Assembly: GCA_023245335.1 (NCBI GenBank)
Contig: JAHFKK010000001.1
Span: 936,019-1,000,018 of the forward strand
Origin: Candidatus Gottesmanbacteria bacterium
GTDB lineage: Bacteria; Patescibacteriota; Microgenomatia; UBA10105; UBA927
DNA: 64,000 nucleotides
Reading direction: 5' to 3'
The notes under the pieces were generated by a model that did not search any database, was not told the origin of the DNA, and saw only the letters and a list, made by a program, of their open reading frames with translations. How positions within the stretch are numbered: the stretch's first letter is position 1; each line of letters begins with the position of its first letter. Shown one piece after another: positions 10,206 to 60,655 of the stretch. A program made the translations under genes and the position numbers.

Positions 10206-10244
10206 CGCTTGTCCTCCGATATATTCACGTGTTACCATGCTGAT

Positions 10245-10622
10245 ATGAGTAAGAAACTTGCCGCATATCCGACATCGGAAATGGTCGCGTTATTTAACGC
10301 GATTCAAGAGATTCGTTCAGACGAGGAAGCAGCCAATTTTTTTCGGGATCTTCTGACGATTGCGGAACTTAAGGAATTCGCCAATCGGTGGCAAATGGTC
10401 AAACGCCTTGTACGCGGAGAGTCATATCTCAAAATCGCTCGTGACCTGCACGTTTCCACGACAACCGTCGGAAGAGTCGCCCACTGGCTCAATAACGGTA
10501 GTGGTGGATATAAAGCGGTAGCTTCCCGATTGTTCGATACCCGTAAGAATCCGGATTATCATGAATCTCCCAGATTCCGATCCGGCAAACTTGCCGGCTG
10601 GCGCAAACCCAACGAGCTATAA
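10245..10622 (+). CDS. YerC/YecD family TrpR-like DNA-binding protein
   Basis: Matches the YerC/YecD Trp-repressor-like fold: LFNAIQEIRSDEEAANFFRDLLTIAELKEFANRWQMVKRL...YLKIARDLHVSTTTVGRV helix-turn-helix. Confidence 0.7.
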   Translation: MSKKLAAYPTSEMVALFNAIQEIRSDEEAANFFRDLLTIAELKEFANRWQMVKRLVRGESYLKIARDLHVSTTTVGRVAHWLNNGSGGYKAVASRLFDTRKNPDYHESPRFRSGKLAGWRKPNEL

Positions 10623-10715
10623 CCTACGTTAATTATTGGCCGGACACTTTCCCTCCCCTCACCTATTCTTTCCCCGCTGCACATACTCTTAGGCATGTAG
10701 TACGGAAGCTGTATG

Positions 10716-10744
10716 TTGACACAATTGTATTAACGTGTTAACAT
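10716..10744 (+). promoter_or_regulatory. Sigma70-like promoter TTGACA-N17-TAACAT embedded in a TAACATG repeat cluster
   Basis: -35 TTGACA at 10716-10721, 17-nt spacer, -10 TAACAT at 10739-10744. Confidence 0.4.
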
Positions 10745-10775
10745 GCTAACATGTTAATATGATAACATCATAACC
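10730..10775. repeat. Cluster of about five degenerate 8-mer direct repeats (tTAACaTG)
   Basis: ttaacgtg-ttaacatg-ctaacatg-ttaatatg-ataacatc read directly in sequence. Confidence 0.5.
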
Positions 10776-10997
10776 AGAAAGCAATATGAATATCACGACC
10801 AACATCAATATGATCAATGTCAAAAGTCTCACTGACTTCTCTATGACCGTAGCCTTTGCGGCTTCTTCGCGTTGCCATCATCGCCTCAACCAAACCTACG
10901 CGTGGTTGAGTTGAGAATCTCTTTCTTCTAAGCATCAGCACCATTATTTCTCCCCTCTCCCATTCGCGGGTTTATATGTTCCGCGTCATAAAAGGAG

Positions 10998-11255
10998 GTG
11001 AATACCTTGAAAGAACAAAATGGGGAACGGGTCACTATAACAGTACAAACACTTGAGGAATTACGGGAATTTGAGCCATGGGGAAATGAGTATAAACAAG
11101 GCGAAAAGGCCCGGGCACGTCTCAGGCAACGGATCCAGCTTGGATTACCAGTCAGGATATCGGTTTCCAAAAAAAGTCTATTAGACCGGTTAGTAGGATC
11201 GTCTCGTATCATCTCTAATCAATCGACCATGTATGACAATAAAGGCGGGCATTAA
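10998..11255 (+). CDS. Hypothetical small protein
   Basis: AGGAGG RBS upstream; probable TTG start at about 11007; no recognisable domain. Confidence 0.35.
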   Translation: MNTLKEQNGERVTITVQTLEELREFEPWGNEYKQGEKARARLRQRIQLGLPVRISVSKKSLLDRLVGSSRIISNQSTMYDNKGGH

Positions 11256-11269
11256 TACCGATAGAATTT

Positions 11270-12346
11270 ATGTATAATCGGACTACTATGAACAATCCGA
11301 TCCTCATCACCAACCCGACAAACATCCGGTACCTGACCGGATTTGTCGGCGTGGCGCCCGAAGAGCGCGAAGCGTACGCTTTGCTGACTCAAAAACATAT
11401 ATTCCTTTTTACAAACGCTTTGTATAAAGAGTCAGCAAAGAATCTCCAATCTCCAATATCCAATATCCAATTACAATTCGTAGAAATCTCACGGGAAAAT
11501 CCTATATCTTCCGAACTCGCAAGGATCACCGCTGAATTCAATATAAAAAAGCTTGGATTTGAAGACGACAACCTGACGGTCGCAGAGCTCACCAAACTGA
11601 AACAAGTGTTGACTGACGTTAGCCTCGTTTCGACAAGAAATAGAATCGAAACGCTTCGGATGACAAAAAACAAAGAGGAAGTCGAGGCCATCCGACTGGC
11701 AGCAAAAATCACGGACCAATGCTTCACGTATATCATCAAACGTATCCGACCCGGAATCACCGAGTCACGACTCGCATGGGAAATAGAAAGCTTTTGCAAA
11801 GTCCGGGCAGGAGATAACGCATTCTCCCCCATCGTCGCCTTTAACGAACACAGCTCCCAACCGCATTATCAGTCCCGGAGCAATAGTCCCCTGCGGCGTG
11901 GGTCGCTTGTTCTTATGGACTTCGGCGCGAAAGTAAACGGATACTGCGCAGATATGACGCGCGTCGTTTTTTTGGGGTCTCCCAAACCGGAATGGAAAAA
12001 GGCCTATGAGACGGTTCTAGCGGCTAACGAAAAAGCGCTTAGTCTCCTTCGTTCAGGCGAGCGCCACGGCGCAACACTCGATGCAGCTGCCAAAGAAGTG
12101 ATCGCCGAAGCCGGATTCCCCCCGTACCCGCACAGCCTCGGACATGCCGTAGGACTCGCGATCCACGAAGCACCAAGACTAACTACTATGAAGGATGAAA
12201 TGCTCGCGCCCGATATGGCCGTCACGGTCGAACCCGGCGTGTATATCGAGGGCCGGTATGGCATTCGCATCGAAGATTTGGTGCGTATCAAAGATACAGG
12301 GATTGAAACACTTTCAGGTAGCCCAAAACAGCTACAAATCGTGTAA
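11270..12346 (+). CDS. M24-family Xaa-Pro aminopeptidase
   Basis: Pita-bread fold metal ligands: HSLGHAVGLAIHE and VEPGVYIEGRYGIRIEDLV; N-terminal creatinase-like domain. Confidence 0.85.
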   Translation: MYNRTTMNNPILITNPTNIRYLTGFVGVAPEEREAYALLTQKHIFLFTNALYKESAKNLQSPISNIQLQFVEISRENPISSELARITAEFNIKKLGFEDDNLTVAELTKLKQVLTDVSLVSTRNRIETLRMTKNKEEVEAIRLAAKITDQCFTYIIKRIRPGITESRLAWEIESFCKVRAGDNAFSPIVAFNEHSSQPHYQSRSNSPLRRGSLVLMDFGAKVNGYCADMTRVVFLGSPKPEWKKAYETVLAANEKALSLLRSGERHGATLDAAAKEVIAEAGFPPYPHSLGHAVGLAIHEAPRLTTMKDEMLAPDMAVTVEPGVYIEGRYGIRIEDLVRIKDTGIETLSGSPKQLQIV

Positions 12347-12356
12347 ACCCAAATTA

Positions 12357-12385
12357 TTGACACGGCAGTACTGTCAGGATATACT
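12357..12385 (+). promoter_or_regulatory. Consensus sigma70 promoter TTGACA-N17-TATACT
   Basis: -35 TTGACA 12357-12362, 17-nt spacer, -10 TATACT 12380-12385. Confidence 0.55.
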
Positions 12386-12391
12386 ACAGGA

Positions 12392-12513
12392 CATATGAAG
12401 ACCGCACAGAATACCGTTTGGTATCATACCCACCAGGTAACTGGCGGATTTTCCGTGCGATAAAACACACACGCATAGAAAATAGTAACCCGCCAGCCCG
12501 GCGGGTTTTTTTT
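12392..12513 (+). promoter_or_regulatory. Leader/attenuator-like element: leaderless 22-codon uORF plus mutually exclusive antiterminator and terminator
   Basis: uORF ATG 12395 encodes MKTAQNTVWYHTHQVTGGFSVR*. CTGGCGG (12438-12444) is the exact complement of CCGCCAG in the 5' arm of the terminator hairpin CCCGCC-AGCCC-GGCGGG+T8 (12489-12513). An alternative GNRA hairpin CCAG-GTAA-CTGG is also possible. Confidence 0.45.
12489..12513 (+). terminator. Rho-independent terminator
   Basis: CCCGCCagcccGGCGGG followed by TTTTTTTT, immediately upstream of the aminotransferase RBS GGGAGG. Confidence 0.7.
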
Positions 12514-12526
12514 GTGGGAGGAATCT

Positions 12527-13564
12527 ATGAAATTACCAAAAGCTTACGCAACAGTTGTACAAAAACGCACGATAGACATGACCGTGAGCGTGAATCCGCT
12601 CGGGTGTTCTCCCCGTGCGCTCCAAGCGCTTAATTCTATGTCGACTGCCGATGTCAGTACCTACCCTGACCAAAAAAGGCTTCTATCCTCCCTAGCGGTG
12701 AGGTACGATATGCGACCGGATATGATCCTTTTGGGAATCGGGTCAGAACAACTCATAAAGCTCGTTTGCCAGACATTTTTAAAGCGTCAGGATACTGCAT
12801 TCGTGGAATCCGGCTCCTTCTTTCTTTTCTCCAGAGAACCGAAAATTCTTGGCGCAAGAGTCGTATTTTTTGACTTTAACAACGCTAAGAGATTCCGAAA
12901 AAGGCCCACACTTCTGTTTCTCGCCAATCCGACTACGCCCGCCGGTATTAATCGGACAAACGAAGAAATACTTCAGGTTATAGACCTCGTTAATCCTATG
13001 ATTGCAGTGGTTGATGAGGCAAACGGTGAATTCAGAAATGGTTCGCTTATTTCGGATATCCGGAAACGCAGGAATCTCGTTGTTTTACGGACGTTCTCAA
13101 AAACACTCGGCCTTGCGGGACTACGGATCGGCATGGCATTCGGGAACTCGGATGTCATATCCCGCATGGGTGAACTGCAACAACCGTTTCCTGTCACGTC
13201 AGCGGCCTTAGCCGCGGCGGAAGCCGCACTCGACGACATATCATTTACCCGTAAAACTATACGGTTCGTGAAGGCTGAACGGGCCTTCCTGACAAAAGAA
13301 TTGATTACGAGAGGTTTTTCGGTATCTCCATCGGTGACCAATAATCTGTTCATATCCGGAAAAAACATAAAAAAAGTGATCTGCGAATTAGAAAACCGTG
13401 GTGTAAGCGTAATCGACGGCGCATACTTCCCCGGTAATACGCAGCCCGGATTCCGCATATCTCTGAGAGATAGAAGAACCAATCGTAAATTCTTGTCGAA
13501 AGTTGACGAAGTGCTCGCTTGTATGGGACAAAATAAGTTGATAGGATCAAAGGAGATTCTATGA
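12527..13564 (+). CDS. Class I/II PLP-dependent aminotransferase, histidinol-phosphate aminotransferase-like
   Basis: HisC-like blocks: NPLGCSP, LANPTTPAG, VDEANGEF, RTFSKTLGLAGLRIGMAFG (PLP-binding Lys). GGGAGG RBS; ATGA overlap with hisS. Confidence 0.75.
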   Translation: MKLPKAYATVVQKRTIDMTVSVNPLGCSPRALQALNSMSTADVSTYPDQKRLLSSLAVRYDMRPDMILLGIGSEQLIKLVCQTFLKRQDTAFVESGSFFLFSREPKILGARVVFFDFNNAKRFRKRPTLLFLANPTTPAGINRTNEEILQVIDLVNPMIAVVDEANGEFRNGSLISDIRKRRNLVVLRTFSKTLGLAGLRIGMAFGNSDVISRMGELQQPFPVTSAALAAAEAALDDISFTRKTIRFVKAERAFLTKELITRGFSVSPSVTNNLFISGKNIKKVICELENRGVSVIDGAYFPGNTQPGFRISLRDRRTNRKFLSKVDEVLACMGQNKLIGSKEIL

Positions 13565-14772
13565 ACACAACACAACCGCTCAAGGGTTTCCGGGATTTCC
13601 TCCCGGCCGAGGCAGCCAAAAGAAAATGGCTGAGGGATAAGCTCGCCGCGATCTGCGAATCATGGGGGTATTTGCCGGTTGAGACGCCGACCCTCGAACC
13701 TTTGGAAATTTTTACCGGCGCAATCGGCGAAGATGAAAAACTGTTCTTTAAGTTCAAAGACCAGGGCGATCGTGATGTAGCGCTCCGATATGACCAAACG
13801 GTGCCGACCTGCCGGCTCATCGCCGAATACCAAAACTCACTGACATTCCCTTTTAAGCGCTACCAAATCCAGCCCGCTTTCCGCGCCGAGAAGCCGCAGA
13901 AGGGCAGATACCGCGAATTCACCCAGGTGGACGCGGATATCTTCGGCATCAAAACTCCGGACGCAGATGCCGAAACCATCGCGCTCTCTCTCGATATTTA
14001 TAAACAGCTTGGATTTAAACGCCCGCTCGTACGCATCAACACCCGCGCCCTATTTAAAGACATACCTTATGGAGCAATCGTTTCTATCGACAAAATCAAA
14101 AAAATCGGCGGCGAAGGCGTGCTCGCCGAGATGAACCGCAAAGGCATTTCGTCCGATAAGGCAAAAGAGTATCTCAACTACGTCAAAAATCTGACTCCCA
14201 ATGAAGAAATCACGTTTATCCTGAAGTATCTCAAGGACTACGGATTCCCGGACGACTGGTATGAATTTGATCCGACGATCGCCCGCTCCTTCTCCTACTC
14301 CATGGGCCCCATATGGGAAGTGGAAATACCGGAAGCCGGCGGATTATCAGTCCTCGGTGGAGAGCGCTACGACGGTCTAATCGAAAAATTAGCAGGCAAA
14401 GATATAGGCGGCACGGGATTCGGACTGGGATTTGACCGGACACTCGAAGCGGCTGACGCACTCGGGCTCACCCCGACCATCACGACAAGCGGGCAGATAT
14501 TGATGACGGTGTTTGCGGTGGGTAGCCTGCCGCAAGCGCTCGAGATCACCCGTTTGCTACGAAGCGGCGGCGTCTACACCGACCTGTATCCGGCTCCCGA
14601 TAAACTGGACAAACAGTTAAAGTACGCGGACAGGAAAGGCATCCCCTACGTCGTCATCCAGGGGCCCGATGAAGCCAAACGCAACGTCATGAAGCTCAAA
14701 AATATGCAGACCAAAGAACAGGAAGAGCTCACTGTCCAACAGGTCATCGACAAACTCACCGTCGCTTCATAA
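13561..14772 (+). CDS. hisS: Histidine--tRNA ligase
   Basis: Class II aaRS motif 2 FRAEKPQKGRYREFTQ, HisRS-specific blocks, C-terminal anticodon-binding domain. Confidence 0.9.
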   Translation: MNTTQPLKGFRDFLPAEAAKRKWLRDKLAAICESWGYLPVETPTLEPLEIFTGAIGEDEKLFFKFKDQGDRDVALRYDQTVPTCRLIAEYQNSLTFPFKRYQIQPAFRAEKPQKGRYREFTQVDADIFGIKTPDADAETIALSLDIYKQLGFKRPLVRINTRALFKDIPYGAIVSIDKIKKIGGEGVLAEMNRKGISSDKAKEYLNYVKNLTPNEEITFILKYLKDYGFPDDWYEFDPTIARSFSYSMGPIWEVEIPEAGGLSVLGGERYDGLIEKLAGKDIGGTGFGLGFDRTLEAADALGLTPTITTSGQILMTVFAVGSLPQALEITRLLRSGGVYTDLYPAPDKLDKQLKYADRKGIPYVVIQGPDEAKRNVMKLKNMQTKEQEELTVQQVIDKLTVAS

Positions 14773-14810: not shown

Positions 14811-15758
14811 GTGAGTAAAAAACGCATTAACGCATATCTTCTCCTCCTTCTGGTCTCCGTCATATGGGGAGCCGCAAGCCCGATCGTCAAGTATGCACTC
14901 ACCTGGTTCCATCCCGTCATATTCCTCACATACCGATTTTTTCTTAGCTCCATTATCGCGCTTATCATTTTCGGCGCAGAGCCCGCTACATTCCCCAAAA
15001 AAGCGAGAGACAAATCACTTGCGTTTCTGACTATGATGCTCTCGACGCCGATCGCGTTGGGGCTTTTCTTCCTTGGATTATCCAAAACGTCTGCACTCTC
15101 CGGAAGCCTTATAACCGCAGGCGCCCCCATCCTCCTGGTTGCGGCGGGGGCACTTTTTCTCCACGAGCGAGTCTCAAATACGGAAAAAGTCGGAATAGTC
15201 ATAACAATTATCGGGACGTTCATGATCGCAATCGGCCCCCTGGTCTTTAACAACACGGCGAATCATTTCGGTACGCTGGAAGGAAATCTCATCATGGTGC
15301 TGGCAACAATTGCCGACCTATCGGCGACCCTATTCACCAAAATATGCATGGATCGGGGTATATCGTTGCGGCTTCTCGCACACGGACAATTTGTCCTGGG
15401 GCTTATTATCTTCCTCCCGATCCTTCTTCTCCGGCATCCTATCGTATCCATAGCAGCAACCGTCGTTGACGCTCCCTGGTCTGCACATGCGGCCGTGTGG
15501 TTTATGGCGCTGATCTCGGGATCGCTTGCCTATACTCTCCGTGACCATGGACTCCGATGGGTTGAGGTGTCGGAAGCGGCAATTTTCACCTACCTGCAGC
15601 CAATCTGGGCAGCCATCCTTTCCATTCTTTGGCTCGGTGAGCCGATTACTACGTCATATATAATTGGCGGCGGCATACTCACCCTCGGCGTCTGTATCTC
15701 CGAATACCGGGGAAAGCGGGTTCCAGCCGTGGTCCACCGTCGACACAAGCGTAAATAG
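14811..15758 (+). CDS. EamA/DMT-family transporter
   Basis: 10 predicted TM helices in two EamA-like repeats. Confidence 0.8.
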
Positions 15759-15777: not shown

Positions 15778-16080
15778 ATGAAATCCGGCATCCACCCCAA
15801 ATGGTATCCAAACGCCGTCGTTTCGTGTGCCTGCGGCAACACGTTTACGGTCGGGTCCACCAAGGATAAAATTCAGGTTGATATCTGCAGCCATTGTCAT
15901 CCGTTCTATACCGGTGAGATGAAATTTGTCGATGCCATGGGTCGTGTCGAACGATTCCAGACCAAACAAAAACAGGCAGCGACCAGCGGCTATGTCTCCA
16001 AAAAGAAGAAAAAGCAGCTTCGATCCGCGTCCGACCAAACGCCGAAATCCCTCAAGGAAATGCTCATGGGCTTGAAGTAG
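15778..16080 (+). CDS. rpmE: 50S ribosomal protein L31 (zinc-binding type) with Lys-rich C-terminal extension
   Basis: [46 protein letters not shown] is canonical L31. The ORF track start at 15664 was trimmed; TATAAT lies at 15762. Confidence 0.85.
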
Positions 16081-16109: not shown

Positions 16110-16808
16110 ATGAATACTGATATCGCCATCATGGAATTCCGTGCGGGTCCCGGCGGAGATGAAGCGCGGATCTGGTCGCAGGACCTCATGCGCATGTACT
16201 CACGATATGCGGTCATTCTCGGATGGAAAGTCGAACAGCTCGACGAGGGCGTCATACGCATCCGTGGGACCGATGTATTTACCAAACTCCAGTACGAGGC
16301 CGGTACACACCGCGTCCAGCGTACCCCGACTACAGAACGCCACGGGCGTATACATACCTCAACCGCGACGATCGCGGTACTTCCCGATGTCCCGGAAAAT
16401 GAAATATACATCCGTCCGGAGGACATAGAGTGGGATTTCTATAGAAGCGGCGGCAAAGGCGGCCAAAATGTGAATAAAGTAAGTTCGGCCGTCCGCATAC
16501 GCCATAAGCCGACCGGCATCGTCGTCCAATGCCAGACGGAACGGGATCAATACCAAAACCGCCAAGTCGCGCTCGGCATGCTGAGGGCAAAGCTCTGGGA
16601 GCAACAGCTCCTCGATCGGGAAAAGTCCGTGAGTGAACAGCGAAGCGTCATCGGCCGGGGCATGCGCGCGGAAAAGATCCGCACCTACAACTTCCCCCAG
16701 AACCGCGTCACCGATCACCGGATCAACAAAAGCTGGCACAACCTTGAGGACATCATGAACGGCAAAATGCAAAAAATTACGGAAGCGATGATTTCTATGC
16801 AAACCTAA
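16110..16808 (+). CDS. prfA: Peptide chain release factor 1 lacking N-terminal domain 1
   Basis: PxT-type codon recognition segment RVQRTPTTERHGRIHTS, GGQ motif SGGKGGQNVNK, RF1-type C-terminus RTYNFPQNRVTDHRI. Only 232 aa; it begins where E. coli RF1 is at about residue 110. Confidence 0.8.
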   Translation: MNTDIAIMEFRAGPGGDEARIWSQDLMRMYSRYAVILGWKVEQLDEGVIRIRGTDVFTKLQYEAGTHRVQRTPTTERHGRIHTSTATIAVLPDVPENEIYIRPEDIEWDFYRSGGKGGQNVNKVSSAVRIRHKPTGIVVQCQTERDQYQNRQVALGMLRAKLWEQQLLDREKSVSEQRSVIGRGMRAEKIRTYNFPQNRVTDHRINKSWHNLEDIMNGKMQKITEAMISMQT

Positions 16809-24089: not shown

Positions 24090-25328
24090 ATGGCTAATCC
24101 CTATCAGCACTACTTATCGCTCCATGAATCGGTCGATCCCACGAAGCACATCATCGCGACATTTGCGCTCTCGGTAACCGGTGAGCCGTTTGACCAGACC
24201 GCAGGGGGTGTCGCTGCGGAATCATCGGTCGGTACGTGGACGGATGTCGGGCTTGAGGACAAAAAAATCTGGGATATGCTGCACGCGAAAGTGACCGACG
24301 CGGATGAAAAGACGGGCACGATCACGATCGCCTATCCCCTTGACCTTTTTGAACCCGGCAGTATCCCGCAGCTTCTCTCATCTATTGCAGGCAACGTCTT
24401 CGGGCTCAAGGAAATATCACGTCTGCGGCTTCTCGACCTCGCGTTTCCGGAAGTCTACGTCAAAAGCTTCCCCGGCCCGGCGCTCGGCGTAGACGGCATC
24501 CGCAACCTCACGGGTGTCCGTGACCAACCGATCCTGGGGTCCATCATCAAACCCAAACTGGGACTCTCAAGCGCCGACCACGCCAAAGCCGCGATGGAAG
24601 TTTTTGATGAAGGCATACACCTCGTCAAGGACGACGAAAACCTGACCAGCATGTCGTTCAACAACTTTTACACCCGCGTGGATGAAGTGACGGACCGCAT
24701 GAATGAGAAGCATTATCTGGAAATCGGCAAGGCAAAAGTATACGCGTTTAATATCACGGCAAGTTACGAAGAAATGATGAAACGGGCAAACTACGTCCGG
24801 GACAAAGGCGCTAATTGTCTCATGATGGATGTCCTGACCGCAGGATTCAGCGGGGTCGCCGGCATACGAAATAGGAACTACGGCCTCATGATCCACGGAC
24901 ACCGCGCCATGCACGCGGCATTTACCCGGTCCCAAGAATACGGCGTCACCATGATGGTCATCGCCAAACTCGCGAGGCTCACTGGCGTCGACTCGTTTCA
25001 CACCGGCACCGTCGTCGGCAAAATGCAGGGCGGCAAGGATGAAGTGGTCAAGATCAACAATTTCCTCCGCTCGGATTGGTATGGCCTTAAGCCGGTACTG
25101 CCGACCGCTTCCGGCGGACTCCACCCCGGACACATTCCGGACCTTATGCACATCCTCGGCAACGATATGCTCCTCAACTTCGGCGGAGGCATCCACGGGC
25201 ATCCCGACGGCACACCCGCAGGCGCAAGGGCCGTGGTCCAGGCGACCTATGCAACACTATTAGGCGTTCCCCTCGCCCAAGCGAAAGAAAGCAAAGAACT
25301 CCAACGCGCACTCGAAAAGTGGCAATAA
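24090..25328 (+). CDS. Ribulose-1,5-bisphosphate carboxylase/oxygenase large subunit, form II/III (CPR/archaeal type)
   Basis: Active-site blocks GSIIKPKLGLS (carbamylated Lys), GIHLVKDDENL and GGGIHGHPDG; about 410 aa as for form III-like enzymes. Confidence 0.85.
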   Translation: MANPYQHYLSLHESVDPTKHIIATFALSVTGEPFDQTAGGVAAESSVGTWTDVGLEDKKIWDMLHAKVTDADEKTGTITIAYPLDLFEPGSIPQLLSSIAGNVFGLKEISRLRLLDLAFPEVYVKSFPGPALGVDGIRNLTGVRDQPILGSIIKPKLGLSSADHAKAAMEVFDEGIHLVKDDENLTSMSFNNFYTRVDEVTDRMNEKHYLEIGKAKVYAFNITASYEEMMKRANYVRDKGANCLMMDVLTAGFSGVAGIRNRNYGLMIHGHRAMHAAFTRSQEYGVTMMVIAKLARLTGVDSFHTGTVVGKMQGGKDEVVKINNFLRSDWYGLKPVLPTASGGLHPGHIPDLMHILGNDMLLNFGGGIHGHPDGTPAGARAVVQATYATLLGVPLAQAKESKELQRALEKWQ

Positions 25329-42477: not shown

Positions 42478-43304
42478 CGAAGTCCATCGAGTGTATGACT
42501 CTCCCCGGCGTTTACTGTCCGTTCTGGCATATCGTGACGAATGATATGGGCCGACCCTGTCCCCAACACCTCAAACGTGTTCTTTGCGCTGTCGATACAG
42601 CAGGCTGTCGTTTCGTCGATTCCCAGAATTGTTATGTTGGGAGGCAGCATACGACGAAGTGTCTCAAATCGCTTCATGCCCATCCAGCAGCGCGTCGTAT
42701 CAAAATCCTCGCCCTCCGTGTTATTCCAATGGGGTATCACGGCAATGGAAATCCCGTAGGGCTTCAATATATCTAATCCCTCTATCCAGTGGATATCCTC
42801 ACCGGCTTTATATATTTCGTACACCGGAAGTGCTACGCGGCCGATCGCGACGGCGGTCGCCGATCCCAAACAAAGCGTCGCTCCCCGTGCGTGAGCCTCC
42901 ATCATGCGCTTCCAGGCGAGCGTATCCCGAAGGTGGGTAATCACATAGCTCGGGCTCCCTGCCCCGCTGTAGAGATAATCAATCTCCCGTATGACATCGA
43001 CCGTGCTTGGGGTATTTGTACTTTTCTCTCCGTCTCTGCGCCAGGCAGGGATGCGCACGATATCGGGTTTCCAGTCGCGTAAATGCTCACGGAAAAAGTC
43101 TTCCATACGCTCCGGCCATCCGTGCATCGCGTTCACCTCGAATCCCGTCGGCGTTTCTAGAATTCCGATTTTTACCGGCGCTGAAAGCGACACACGCCGA
43201 AAAACATCTTCATGTATTTTCCGGCCCGTAGGGGTAAGCTCACCGGAACCGAATAAAACGATGACGCCGGGGGTACGGCTATCACGGCCGGAGCGCCGCG
43301 TCAT
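42474..43304 (-). CDS. Class I glutamine amidotransferase-like / peptidase S51-like protein
   Basis: Flavodoxin-like start VIVLFGSGE; possible nucleophile elbow LCLGSATAV; assignment weak. Confidence 0.4.
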   Translation of the reverse strand: MTRRSGRDSRTPGVIVLFGSGELTPTGRKIHEDVFRRVSLSAPVKIGILETPTGFEVNAMHGWPERMEDFFREHLRDWKPDIVRIPAWRRDGEKSTNTPSTVDVIREIDYLYSGAGSPSYVITHLRDTLAWKRMMEAHARGATLCLGSATAVAIGRVALPVYEIYKAGEDIHWIEGLDILKPYGISIAVIPHWNNTEGEDFDTTRCWMGMKRFETLRRMLPPNITILGIDETTACCIDSAKNTFEVLGTGSAHIIRHDMPERTVNAGESHTLDGLR

Positions 43305-44746
43305 ATGGTCTTTTTTTTTACACGGGAGCCCTGAGGCGTATCCTCTATTTCATATCCGCTCTTGACGATTTGATCGCGGACCGTATCGGATTCTGCGAAT
43401 TTTTTGGCGGCGCGGAATTCATCCCGTTTACGAAGCAGCGCTTGAATGCCGGCAGGCGCCTCTTCCTCCGTCGGCGCTTCAGAAATGTCGGCAAGCTTGA
43501 GACCCAAGACGTCATCAAAATCGAGAAGTAAATCAAATTTATCCTGACTCGGCACATTGGATTTGATAAGCTCCCAGACGACCGCGAGGGCCTGCGGAGT
43601 ATTCATGTCGTTTCCGAGTGCCGAATCAAATTTAGCGCGATACGCGTCTACTTTGGCAAGCTTCTCTTCACTAAGTGCTGAGCGTTCGCGTTTCTCCGCT
43701 TTCAGTTTGCTAATCTGAATTCGTAACTCCGACAGTGCTGATTGCGCAGCATGCAAGGATTCCCAGGTAAAATTGAGTTCGCTGCGGTACTGACTCGTCA
43801 AGTAAAAATATCGGAGCGCCAAAGGATCAATTCCTTTCTTTATCACGTCCTCGACGGTATAAAAATTACCGAAACTCTTACTCATTTTTTTACCGTCTAC
43901 GCGCAGAAAATTATAGTGTATCCAGTACTTCACGAACGGTTGACCGGTCGCTCCCTCACTTTGGGCGATTTCATTGGGATGATGAACCGGTATGTGGTCA
44001 ATGCCGCCGGTGTGAATGTCAAAACTGTCGCCGAGGTATTTCATGCTCATCGCCGAACACTCGATATGCCAGCCAGGGAAACCGTCGCCCCAGGGGCTAT
44101 CCCAATGCATCGCATGATCCGCAAATCTCCCGACACGTTTAAACCATAGCGCGAAATCCGCAGGATGTTTTTTGTGTTCTCCGGTTTGCACGCTGTCGCG
44201 AACCGCTGTTTTTTTCTCCGTGAGTTTCTGGCGCCCGAAAAGTTTATCGTATCCCGGAAAGGTCGTCACGTCGTAGTAGACCGCTTCAGGCGTTTCGTAG
44301 GCGTGACCGCGATCCACGAGCTTTTGTATGAGGGCAATCTGCTCGGCTATGTGCTCCGTGGCTTTACAGATAACGCTCGGCCGCAAGACGTTTAATGAAT
44401 CCATTGTGGTATAAAAATGATCAGTATAAAATTTCGCTACATCCCACACGGTCTTGCCGTACTTTTTTGCACCCTTTTCCATTTTGTCCTCACCCTCATC
44501 CGCGTCTGATGCCAAATGTCCGACATCCGTCACGTTCTGAACATGCGTCACGTCATACCCGAAACGCGTAAGTATGCGCCGTAATACATCGTCACCGACA
44601 TACTTGCGGCCATGGCCGATATGCGCGTAGTCATAGACGGTCATACCGCACGTATAGAGACCCACTTTGGGAGGATGTATGGGCACAAAATCTTCTATCT
44701 TCCGGGTAAAACTGTTATAGATATGAAGCATAGGCAATCTCCACAA
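43301..44746 (-). CDS. cysS: Cysteine--tRNA ligase
   Basis: HIGH motif (HIGHGRKY), KMSKS motif (KMSKSFGN), zinc-binding Cys residues. Confidence 0.9.
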
Positions 44747-58901: not shown

Positions 58902-60134
58902 CTATGTCCCTGTCAATGTAGACATCACCGCTTGTAAAGGAATCAGCTTCGCCTCTTTCTCACTGCGTTTCTTCAGCTCAATCTGATCTCCCGTCTTGGC
59001 AGAGACGACAAGTCGAAGCGGTATACCGATGAGATCCGCATCGCCAAATTTGACCCCTGCCGATACTTTTCTATCATCCCAAAGCACTTCAACATGATTT
59101 TTTTGCAGTGTTTCATAGAGAACGTGTGCTTTTTCCTCCCCGCCGGGCAAGGAAACGAGATGTACCGCAAACGGCGCAATCTGCGGAAACCAAACAATAC
59201 CCCGGTCATCATGGGAGACCTCTACGGCGGTCCCCATGACGCGCGTCGGTCCGATGCCGTAACTGCCGAACCATACCGGTTTTTTCTGTCCCGTTTCGTC
59301 GGTAAAACTGACTTTCATTTTTTCGGCGTACCACTTTCCCAATGGAAAAATGTTACCGACTTCGATAGATTTGCCTGTACGGATATCCTTTTTCCCGCAC
59401 AAAGGACACGTATCTATTTTTTCGTCCATCAATTCTTTATTGACTCCCCAATCACAGGTACCGCAATAAAATATAGTGTCTTCACCGCCGTCTGAAAGCA
59501 CCTGAAACTCATGCGTGTGTTTATCGGTAAATACTCCGCCGCTTGCTTCTGTAACCCTAATCTCAAATCCCAATCGCTTAAAGATCTTTTTATATGCTTC
59601 TTTCACCTTTTCGTAGTATTCCATGAGATCTTCTTCCGATACGTGTGCGCTATAAAGATCTTTCATCATAAATTCCCGTCCTCGCAGGATTCCGCTTCTC
59701 GCGCGAGGTTCGTTACGGAACTTTGTCGAAAAATGATATACGGCGACGGGCAAATCCTGATAACTTTGGATATGCTTTCGCAGCAAATCCATAACGATCT
59801 CCTCATGAGTAAAAGATAACGCATACTCGTGTTCACGCGAGTCTTTCAGTTTATACAAAATTTCTGCTGCTTTATCCCACCTACCGGTTTCATTCCAAAT
59901 TTCCTTCGGATGCAGAAGCGGCATGAGCATCTCCTGTCCGCCTATGGCGTTCATTTCTTCGCGGATTATCTCGTTAATCTTGGTAACCACGCGAAATCCA
60001 AGCGGCAGAAGCGTCCAACTCCCCGCCATGAGTTGATCCACAAACCCTGCACGTACCAAGAGTTGATGGTTGACGCTCTCTGCGCCGGTTGGCGCAGTTT
60101 TTTTCGTTTTTGGAAATACATTCGAATACTTCAT
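58902..60134 (-). CDS. proS: Proline--tRNA ligase (compact form)
   Basis: Class II motif 2 FRNEPRARSGILRGREFMMKDLYS, motif 3 region, ProRS-like N-terminus; C-terminal CxxC zinc knuckle. Confidence 0.85.
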   Translation of the reverse strand: MKYSNVFPKTKKTAPTGAESVNHQLLVRAGFVDQLMAGSWTLLPLGFRVVTKINEIIREEMNAIGGQEMLMPLLHPKEIWNETGRWDKAAEILYKLKDSREHEYALSFTHEEIVMDLLRKHIQSYQDLPVAVYHFSTKFRNEPRARSGILRGREFMMKDLYSAHVSEEDLMEYYEKVKEAYKKIFKRLGFEIRVTEASGGVFTDKHTHEFQVLSDGGEDTIFYCGTCDWGVNKELMDEKIDTCPLCGKKDIRTGKSIEVGNIFPLGKWYAEKMKVSFTDETGQKKPVWFGSYGIGPTRVMGTAVEVSHDDRGIVWFPQIAPFAVHLVSLPGGEEKAHVLYETLQKNHVEVLWDDRKVSAGVKFGDADLIGIPLRLVVSAKTGDQIELKKRSEKEAKLIPLQAVMSTLTGT

Positions 60135-60143
60135 ATACCCTCC

Positions 60144-60479
60144 TTAATAGAGTTTACCACCAATAACTGCTTTTTCTTTATCAGGAACGATCAGTATACA
60201 TTCATGATCTCCATCCGGCACACCTAACGTCAGTACTTCCGATAAAAAGGGTCCGATTTGCCGGGGAGGAAAATTGACGACGCCAAGGACCTTTTTCCCC
60301 TTGAGCGCGTCTTTCGTGTAGTGCTTGACGAGCTGTGCACTGGATCGTTTGACCCCGATCTCCGGACCGAAGTCGATCGTGAGTTTATACGCGGGTTTAC
60401 GCGCTTCGGGGAAATCGTCAACGGCAGTGATGATGCCGACCCGGACATCCAATTTTAGAAAATCATCATATGTTGCCAT
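60144..60479 (-). CDS. tRNA-binding protein (CsaA/Trbp111-like OB-fold, MetRS C-terminal domain homolog)
   Basis: FLKLDVRVGIITAVDDFPEARKPAYKLTIDFGPEIG...VVNFPPRQIG matches the EMAP/Myf tRNA-binding domain; AGGAGG RBS. Confidence 0.8.
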   Translation of the reverse strand: MATYDDFLKLDVRVGIITAVDDFPEARKPAYKLTIDFGPEIGVKRSSAQLVKHYTKDALKGKKVLGVVNFPPRQIGPFLSEVLTLGVPDGDHECILIVPDKEKAVIGGKLY

Positions 60480-60500: not shown

Positions 60501-60655
60501 AAAAACCCGCCACCCCACTCTCGGGGTAAGGACGGGTAATCGTGGTACCACCTTACGTTACTTCTTATTACTGCTGTCACGGGCTTACCCGTTTCCGTTC
60601 TTGGCGGAACCGCTTGTCCTGTTCGGTGGCAGGACTTATAACGCGTTTATGAACA
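60501..60655 (-). ncRNA. T-box-like riboswitch leader (proline specifier) with intrinsic terminator
   Basis: Minus strand AAGGUGGUACCACG (T-box consensus AGGGUGGNACCGCG). GUAAGG...CCUUAC antiterminator helix shares its 3' arm with the terminator ACCCGUCCUUACCCCgagaguGGGGUGGCGGGU-U6. Upstream hairpin GUCCUG-CCACCGAA-CAGGAC displays CCA/CCG. Confidence 0.6.

Follow-up and report, generated by a model that had tools for sequence, protein, structure and literature searches.

A likely ribosome-mediated attenuator upstream of an aminotransferase-hisS operon in Candidatus Gottesmanbacteria

How is an operon controlled when its essential histidine--tRNA ligase gene lies behind an intrinsic terminator? 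This question is raised by a stretch of 64,000 nucleotides from a Candidatus Gottesmanbacteria genome (contig JAHFKK010000001.1, positions 936,019 to 1,000,018; the whole stretch is called the window hereafter), in which a HisC-like aminotransferase gene and hisS are preceded by a leader. This leader consists of a promoter, a short upstream open reading frame (uORF) and an intrinsic terminator. From the comparison of related leaders and from modelling of their folds, we conclude that it is most likely a ribosome-mediated (leader-peptide) transcription attenuator of the aminotransferase-hisS-(EamA) operon. An earlier sequence-only reading of the window had described the TTGACA-N17-TATACT promoter, a uORF of 22 codons including two for His, the complementarity of a CUGGCGG segment to the terminator, the terminator itself and an ATGA coupling to hisS. 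All of these elements are present (Table 1). We number the pairing segments 1 to 4: region 2 is the CUGGCGG segment inside the uORF, regions 3 and 4 are the two arms of the terminator, region 1 can pair with region 2 in a hairpin termed P1, and a further hairpin, P3, lies between regions 2 and 3.

A leader shared by related aminotransferase loci

The leader promoter matches the consensus at 11 of 12 positions and is the joint best of eight promoter-like sites between 9000 and 17000, an interval in which the number of such sites was not above the shuffled expectation. The fold of the leader gave z = -5.25 against shuffled sequences. The pattern GGCGG..CCGCC..GGCGGKTTT occurs once in the 64-kb window, where no copy is expected, and the leader terminator is among the very few canonical terminators in these 64 kb. 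Only 13 nt separate its U-tract from the aminotransferase ATG, which leaves no room for a promoter, so that the operon must be transcribed through the terminator. Scanning the + strand from the leader promoter to 14776, just 3' of the hisS stop, revealed no other promoter-like site. Taken with the lack of room, this suggests that essential hisS depends on read-through.

Related leaders were gathered from contigs encoding homologs of the aminotransferase (45-66% protein identity) and by one pattern scan of metagenome DNA. This yielded 12 further distinct leaders 5' of orthologous aminotransferase genes, or 13 in all with that of the window. The metagenome scan contributed three loci, namely a second copy (L013) of the L005 leader and two new leaders (L014 and L015). 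When a genome collection was scanned with the aminotransferase protein, a single distant locus from Dehalococcoidia (L001) came back, and it was uninformative. Three matches to the region 2/terminator pattern in viral contigs were unrelated tandem GC hairpins and were discarded. Seven leaders form a close clade (window, L005, L007, L009, L010, L014 and L015). The uORFs of this clade read MNIARVTVWYHTHPRLGRVSMR, MKNARNTVWYHTHPLPGGFSVR, MMITRTAGWYHTHPCLGGYLVR, MTNAWSHGYHTHPQAGRVSMR, MKSTRITVWYHTHLEEGGFSVR and MNIARVTVWYHTHPHIGRVSMR, each followed by a stop codon, as are those of the more distant hisS-linked loci (MKTQMTIAYGHDHPTRQVGGFFVL, MITRQAYSYWHHEPTQTVGGFCMA and METLILNLHWYHYPTRLVGGFFVI), of two loci in which the aminotransferase gene lies in a polysaccharide gene cluster with no synthetase gene (MNFAKQINNTYHWNKLLHVADFPI and MKNKNLNYNWYCHYKLHSEADSPI), and of one locus in which it is followed by cysS (L017, MVYTCAYCRDCYNANHVAGFVVV).

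The architecture was kept throughout this set. The distance from uORF ATG to terminator end is 116-132 nt in all 13 leaders, every one of them has the CCCGCC/GGCGGG-U terminator, and in 12 of the 13 a distance of 6-10 nt separates the end of the -10 box from the uORF ATG. All seven close-clade promoters conform to TTGACA-N17-TATACTACAGGA, with the TTGACA and TATACT hexamers identical despite unrelated spacer sequences; the distant leaders have extended -10 boxes (TGnTATAAT). The gene 5' of the leader varies and may be an M24 peptidase gene, a small membrane protein gene, an epimerase gene or a divergently oriented gene (L017). Because the leader is kept where hisS is absent and where the upstream genes differ, it belongs with the aminotransferase gene and not strictly with hisS. 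In L010, L012, L016 and L017 the gene before this leader is a different one or points the other way, indicating that the terminator is not simply that of the upstream peptidase mRNA, a possibility that the sequence-only reading had named as fatal to its proposal.

In some relatives an additional 60-130 nt separates the leader terminator from the start of the aminotransferase gene (L007, ~2206-2500; L014, ~960-1090; shorter in L005, ~2440-2500). Two strong hairpins are found in this segment (for example GTGGTCTCTTAGCAAGAG..CTTAGAGCCAC and ATGGTTTCGTGCGAAGCAC..GCGAAACCAT). The segment may represent an insertion or else a second module of regulation. The window lacks it.

Codon content of the uORF and alternative RNA pairings

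All 13 leaders contain an open reading frame (ORF) of 21-24 codons that begins with ATG and closes with UAA. Read in this frame (frame 0), their 296 sense codons include no internal stop, whereas the two alternative frames contain 20 and 12. When compared with a codon background taken from 20 long ORFs of the window, frame 0 was enriched in codons for His (9.1% against 2.3%, 4-fold), Tyr (6.8% against 3.4%, 2-fold) and Trp (3.7% against 1.3%, 2.8-fold), and the enrichment was confined to this frame. Tyr is found in all 13 uORFs and Trp in 11 of them; the ten hisS-linked leaders all have at least two His codons, and the His/Tyr/Trp content persists where hisS is absent. A uORF was present in every relative examined; its absence there, or a lack of His codons, would have spoken against the sequence-only reading. 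Across the 13 leaders these codons sit at codons 8-14. Their position is kept, their order is not: depending on the lineage, the cluster reads WYHTH, GYHTH, YGHDH, YWHHE, HWYHY, YHW or WYCHY. Since the order varies between lineages, regulatory codons account for the cluster better than a peptide motif does. Three of the codons in the cysS-linked leader L017 are for Cys (background 0.6%), a suggestive but single case that was noticed post hoc.

Close relatives show compensating +1/-1 indels that preserve the frame and the UAA (GGC GGG TTT TCC GTG CGA TAA against GGG CGG GTT TCC ATG CGA TAA). We infer from the sequences that the uORF is translated. The closeness of the -10 box to the ATG implies a leaderless uORF. 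In the window, transcription would start at ~12391-12393, 2-5 nt 5' of the ATG; the sequence-only reading had placed the start within 2-3 nt. In five distant lineages whose -10 box is close to the ATG (L011, L016, L017, L018 and L019), no Shine-Dalgarno (SD) sequence precedes the uORF while strong ones precede the aminotransferase genes, which makes leaderless initiation the only obvious route for the uORF.

Each of the 13 uORFs contains exactly one GGNGG, located 10-16 nt before its stop codon. RNAduplex paired this segment and its flanks with the terminator 5' arm and part of the loop in every leader. The energies of this antiterminator duplex (-10.8 to -22.9 kcal/mol) are similar to or better than those of the terminator hairpins and, leader by leader, only 0-3.2% of 500 shuffles did as well. 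An alignment of the 13 leaders with MAFFT, analyzed by RNAalifold, recovered the terminator alone, region 2 being misaligned by 1 nt. For the region 2:3 test we therefore replaced it by gap-free segments in a register anchored only on the invariant cores. Pairing occurs in 74.4% of the cells of this register and in 29-49% once the partner segment is shifted, and the covariation score of 0.138 was reached by 2 of 500 shuffles. Three antiterminator pairs show double changes and extend into the terminator loop (for example CUGG:CCAG, CUUG:CAAG and GGUUGG:CCAACC). The terminator stem keeps all seven of its pairs over the 13 leaders, two of them with compensatory changes. The terminator/antiterminator alternative is supported in 13 of 13 leaders, in line with the geometry of ribosome-mediated attenuation recognised by the sequence-only reading. 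Within the close clade, compensatory differences in the P3 stem are visible by eye (window UUUUC/GAAAA against L005 UUCC/GGAA; L010 CAUGCGA/UUGCAUG).

The effect of a ribosome on these pairings was modelled by folding the nascent RNA up to a point just 5' of the terminator 3' arm while a stretch of 28 nt surrounding each A-site codon was kept unpaired. With the A site at or before the Trp/Tyr/His cluster, the terminator 5' arm (region 3) was predicted to be paired with a probability (P) of 0.6-1.0. In 11 of 13 leaders it was freed (P mostly <0.3) as soon as the A site lay 0-3 codons beyond the cluster, a boundary that held for 3' footprint edges from +9 to +15. Once the ribosome was placed on the stop codon, all 13 leaders had the terminator as their minimum-energy structure.

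Further complementary segments were observed in the leader. CGCAC near the 5' end of the uORF (12403-12407), kept in the close clade, complements GUGCG of the P3 5' arm (12455-12459). In an extended minimum-energy fold of the window leader, its 5' end (12392-12410) pairs with the U-tract/aminotransferase SD region (12510-12530), so that the SD region is partly paired; the dominant output element is the intrinsic terminator. Most relatives also have a RUG(U)GG motif 3' of the U-tract. These three features may represent further layers of alternative pairing.

Proposed mechanism and rival explanations

The attenuator would operate as follows. The strong promoter would start the RNA 0-5 nt before the AUG, and a ribosome could load as soon as the 5' end emerges from the polymerase. 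It would then meet the Trp-Tyr-His-Thr-His cluster (codons 9-13), followed by region 2, which can pair with the terminator 5' arm. If charged His-tRNA (perhaps also Tyr- or Trp-tRNA) were scarce, the ribosome would stall on the cluster and leave region 2 free to pair with region 3 around P3; the terminator would be blocked and the polymerase, provided that it is coupled to the ribosome, would read into the operon. If charged tRNA were ample, the ribosome would move towards the UAA and cover region 2, the CCCGCC/GGCGGG-U8 terminator would form and transcription would stop. Three of the features that define this mechanistic class are seen here: an ORF with a plausible translation start in the 5' leader, enriched codons just upstream of the antiterminator strand, and mutually exclusive antiterminator and terminator structures with region 2 inside the uORF.

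Several observations weigh against this attenuator. The number of independent lineages behind the 13 sequences is only about 6-7. With the ribosome stalled in the cluster and the RNA at full length, the antiterminator was the minimum-energy structure in only 7 of 13 leaders. At equilibrium the antiterminator prevails even without a ribosome, so that the scheme hinges on kinetics; the translating ribosome itself thus seems to be the main anti-antiterminator. A hairpin at the position of P1 is predicted in 13 of 13 leaders (with an A.C mismatch in the close clade), and its energy was no better than that of shuffled controls, leaving P1 unsupported as a significant anti-antiterminator. The competing CCAG-GUAA-CUGG hairpin of GNRA type that the sequence-only reading had pointed out does exist as the core of P1. 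However, its tetraloop is not conserved in relatives, it is weak, and the part of anti-antiterminator finds no statistical support; P1 and its U-run may instead serve as a pause site or as a weak anti-antiterminator. The window leader has only two His codons, which are not adjacent. Finally, C-to-U changes in region 1 (ACC to ACU and CAC to CAU) were rejected as coding evidence: they are synonymous and at the same time keep G.U pairs, and they therefore cannot separate coding from RNA constraint.

The specificity of the sensor is clearly less certain than the mechanism. His is the most enriched and most consistent residue of the cluster, and the His codons of every hisS-linked leader agree with the His-tRNA dependence that the sequence-only reading had considered. 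A purely His-specific sensor is not established, because Tyr and Trp are co-conserved and the aminotransferase genes of L012 and L016 have no hisS downstream. It is conceivable, though we would not count on it, that the leader is a multi-amino-acid sensor, in which the products of the HisC-like (histidine/aromatic) aminotransferase would be monitored through the His, Tyr and Trp codons, and additional codons would stand for the co-transcribed synthetase (His for hisS, three Cys for cysS). The leaders would then form a modular family of leaderless attenuators that coordinates salvage, transport and tRNA charging in reduced-genome Patescibacteria, and their codon content would predict the substrates of the uncharacterised aminotransferase.

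Conservation within the peptide raises the question whether the nascent chain itself is the sensor. In an arrest peptide of the TnaC or SpeFL type, the nascent chain with its W-Y-H-T-H-P core would stall the ribosome in response to a free metabolite in the exit tunnel, for example histidine or an aromatic compound, and not to tRNA charging. The WYHTH(P) core is identical in six of the seven close-clade leaders, and in the L011/L018/L019 clade H-x-H-P, H-E-P or H-Y-P followed by P-T-R/Q-x-V-G-G-F recurs, with synonymous third positions in the Gly-Gly codons (GGU GGG, GGA GGG, GGG GGU) that weaken the pairing. The variable order of W, Y and H among lineages argues against such a peptide, and so does its C-terminal half, which shifts frame in close relatives (GGFSVR against GRVSMR) while the RNA is kept, and differs between clades. 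The residues that would lie nearest the peptidyl-transferase centre at the stop codon are hence not conserved as peptide. Moreover, antitermination needs a stall at the cluster and not at the stop codon, and the terminator is intrinsic, with no need for a Rho site. We regard an arrest peptide as improbable. Much the same nucleotide conservation could be explained by pairing alone, if the leader were an RNA-only attenuator, that is an unrecognised riboswitch or a protein- or tRNA-binding leader whose ligand binds the 5' part, the open frame being incidental. Pairing does explain much of the conservation (region 1 resembles region 3, and CGCAC has its complement in P3), the region 1 changes just mentioned preserve G.U pairs, and the same genome has an RNA-only T-box-like leader for proS. 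However, the ATG, the frame, the UAA and the in-frame Trp, Tyr and His codons are kept although the 5' halves cannot be aligned (window against L011, L018, L019 and L016), and the alignment of the 13 leaders showed no conserved structure across clades in the 5' half. Only ~45 nt lie 5' of region 2, too short for a T-box Stem I. No Rfam family supports a ligand-binding RNA either. The whole window searched at gathering thresholds gave nothing at the leader site, and in a sensitive scan of 12300-12560 at E<=10 neither the T-box (RF00230) nor His_leader (RF00514) was listed. A match to a different known family was among the outcomes that the sequence-only reading had named as refuting. The best match of that scan was Trp_leader (RF00513; 24.9 bits, E = 0.004, below the gathering threshold of 41), and the Xanthomonas small RNA (sRNA) sX5 (19.1 against 50), Phe_leader (RF01859; 17.7 against 55) and Leu_leader (13.0 against 50) also stayed below threshold. 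The three leader-peptide models align mainly over the terminator and hairpins; we counted their presence among the best sub-threshold matches in favour of the attenuator. An RNA-only device thus appears quite unlikely to us.

The remaining explanation involves no switch at all: the element would be an independent sRNA or micropeptide gene of ~120 nt with its own promoter and terminator, as the sequence-only reading had offered as its alternative, or merely the terminator of the upstream peptidase gene. The compact promoter-to-terminator unit fits this, and a trans role of terminated attenuator RNAs is reported elsewhere, for rnTrpL (PMC6614838). In L007 and L014 the 110-130 nt between terminator and aminotransferase start could also accommodate a second promoter. 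In the window, by contrast, the 13-nt gap forces hisS transcription through the terminator. Regardless of the gene on its 5' side, even a divergent one, the element remains next to the aminotransferase gene, and the internal copy of the terminator 3' arm, found in 13 of 13 leaders, would be purposeless in a plain sRNA. The peptide of the uORF is poorly conserved overall. The sRNA alternative received no specific support, and we consider an element without switching function very improbable.

Operon, surroundings and comparison with known systems

The genes behind the leader are listed in Table 1 together with its elements. The aminotransferase scores 195 bits with the hisC model TIGR01141, under the cutoff of 276, and is similar to CobD as well; the PDB structures nearest to it are those of HisC and of a putative phenylalanine aminotransferase. 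Public annotation puts its start 17 codons downstream of 12527. We favour 12527, because there are homologs of 345 amino acids and an SD sequence. The relatives of the window's HisRS at 72-85% identity are named Patescibacteria group or Candidatus Gottesmanbacteria, which makes the host, whose contig measures ~1.2 Mb, a bacterium of the Candidate Phyla Radiation. An EamA-family transporter gene lies 3' of hisS in 8 of the 10 hisS-linked loci (window, L005, L007, L009, L010, L011, L018 and L019), L014 and L015 being without downstream annotation, and its synteny suggests that it is probably the last gene of the operon.

Table 1. Coordinates of the leader elements and operon genes in the window
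Feature	Positions	Strand	Remarks
-35 hexamer, TTGACA	12357-12362	+	read from the sequence
-10 hexamer, TATACT	12380-12385	+	17-nt spacer from the -35
uORF, 22 codons and UAA, MKTAQNTVWYHTHQVTGGFSVR	12395-12463	+	predicted leaderless or near-leaderless
Putative sensor codon cluster, TGG TAT CAT ACC CAC (W9 Y10 H11 T12 H13)	12419-12433	+	
His codon CAT	12425-12427		
His codon CAC	12431-12433		
Hairpin P1 (regions 1:2), CCACCAG-GUAA-CUGGCGG	12430-12447	+	with A.C mismatch
Core of P1, CCAG-GUAA-CUGG	12433-12444		
Region 2, CUGGCGG	12441-12447	+	antiterminator 5' strand; uORF codons 16-18; exact complement of CCGCCAG
Hairpin P3, UUUUCCGUGCG ... CGCAUAGAAAA	12449-12482	+	brings regions 2 and 3 together; uORF stop codon just 3' of its 5' arm, at loop start
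Intrinsic terminator (regions 3:4), AACCCGCC-AGCCC-GGCGGGUU then U8	12487-12513	+	
Terminator hairpin, AACCCGCC-AGCCC-GGCGGGTT	12487-12507		
T8	12506-12513		
Antiterminator 3' strand, CCGCCAG	12490-12496		terminator 5' arm and two loop bases
SD, GGGAGG	12516-12521	+	aminotransferase gene, ATG 12527
HisC-like class I/II aminotransferase gene, with SD	12516-13564	+	Pfam PF00155 (Aminotran_1_2)
hisS (histidine--tRNA ligase)	13561-14772	+	TIGR00442, 337 bits, over cutoff 287; ATG overlaps aminotransferase stop as ATGA, 13561-13564
EamA-family transporter gene	14811-15758	+	syntenic 3' of hisS

Other features of the neighbourhood were recorded in passing. A helix-turn-helix gene related to YerC/YecD and TrpR (10209-10622 (+)) lies two genes upstream of the leader; a link to the attenuator was rejected, as the gene is absent at that position in L005, L007 and L009. 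It is followed by ~650 nt without a called gene in public annotation (10623-11269). There, repeated TTAACAT/GTTAACATG motifs, operator-like in look, overlap a promoter-like TTGACA at 10716, and two small uncalled ORFs are found at 10786-10914 and 11008-11255, the latter with the SD AAAGGAGGTG. This interval gave no credible Rfam match, the sole one at E<=1 being the eukaryotic microRNA MIR8643 (22 bits against a gathering threshold of 135). Directly 3' of rpmE (L31, ~15778-16080), an RF1-like protein of 232 amino acids (16110-16808 (+)) matches only ~106-347 of the prfA models; it is without the N-terminal domain, and its ORF has no possible upstream extension. The window also contains, at 24090-25328 (+) and 43301-44746 (-), a homolog of the RuBisCO large subunit, which is typical of the nucleotide-salvage pathway of the Candidate Phyla Radiation (CPR), and its own cysS. 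In contrast to the cysS that follows the aminotransferase gene in L017, that of the window has no leader and lies 3' of a DUF2079 membrane-protein gene after a 33-nt gap.

A second synthetase operon of the window bears a different kind of leader. A reduced T-box-like element at 60505-60650 (-), upstream of 60144-60479 (-) and 58902-60134 (-), scored 30.7 bits with RF00230 (gathering threshold 93, E = 5e-5) in the same search setting. It has the T-box sequence UAAGGUGGUACCACG and the terminator ACCCGUCC..GGCGGGU-U6, and precedes genes for a CsaA-like tRNA-binding protein and a short (410 amino acids) ProRS. Synthetase operons of this genome thus seem to be served by two kinds of leader, one T-box-like and the other a leader-peptide attenuator, in agreement with the statement of the sequence-only reading that the hisS leader lacks a T-box and that two synthetase operons in the window would differ in this respect.

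Most descriptions of leader-peptide attenuation come from Proteobacteria and Actinobacteria, and one earlier prediction concerns Bacilli (PMC2965389). Literature searches on leader peptides or attenuation in Patescibacteria, and on riboswitches, T-boxes or aminoacyl-tRNA synthetases in the CPR, returned no description of a CPR leader. The principle is a textbook one; for the sequence family and the host group we found no earlier description, and there is no Rfam family for it. If the attenuator is real, these ultra-small uncultured bacteria would couple transcription and translation tightly enough for ribosome-based sensing. They would also use leaderless uORFs, and would place an essential synthetase under common control with a transporter and an aminotransferase of HisC type. 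The host organisms are generally without amino-acid biosynthesis, and the conserved His, Tyr and Trp codons offer a clue to the role of the aminotransferase. For the annotation of CPR genomes, a new RNA family model could be built from the alignment of the 13 sequences.

Among known systems, the enterobacterial his leader (hisL, RF00514) is a textbook case with the same general design: a short ORF with His codons, overlapping terminator and antiterminator, a terminator before the first structural gene, and read-through upon stalling at His codons. However, hisL has seven consecutive His codons, where the leader described here has 2-3 interspersed with Tyr and Trp; its ORF is SD-led and controls a His biosynthetic operon, whereas ours is predicted to be leaderless and stands before a synthetase operon. 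No homology is detectable between the two, and the 1:2 hairpin is weak in our case. The trp operon leader (RF00513) aligns over the full length of its model, has only two regulatory codons, and likewise relies on an advancing ribosome that masks region 2, although the score is driven mainly by the terminator and one hairpin and the regulated genes differ. Closest in regulatory logic is the textbook attenuator of E. coli pheST (pheM), which controls a synthetase operon through leader codons for the cognate amino acid. It differs in its amino acid (Phe), its gamma-proteobacterial host, its SD-led ORF and the lack of a co-transcribed aminotransferase gene, and shares no sequence relationship with the leader of the window.

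The usual link between transcription of synthetase genes and tRNA charging in Gram-positive bacteria is the T-box, which also acts through a terminator/antiterminator switch. T-box leaders (RF00230) bind the tRNA directly, whereas the leader described here has neither a T-box sequence (AANNNGGGUGGNACCGCG-like) nor a Stem I, and the ribosome would do the sensing. Outside Proteobacteria, a leader peptide with His codons and a premature terminator was predicted computationally in 2010 5' of Bacillus hisS paralogs (PMC2965389). That prediction resembles ours in concerning His codons before genes of the hisS family, but, as far as a comparison by description goes, it involves Firmicutes, a stretch of His codons and a host whose main hisS uses a T-box. 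Leaderless initiation, finally, has a counterpart in the polycysteine uORFs of mycobacteria, which are translational attenuators (Canestrari et al., bioRxiv 10.1101/834739). There too a leaderless short ORF forms the first cistron, and stalling of ribosomes at the codons of one amino acid controls the operon behind it; the three Cys codons of the cysS-linked L017 offer a parallel. The mycobacterial uORFs, however, unmask a ribosome-binding site and so act on translation, whereas the dominant output element of the aminotransferase-hisS leader is a canonical intrinsic terminator.

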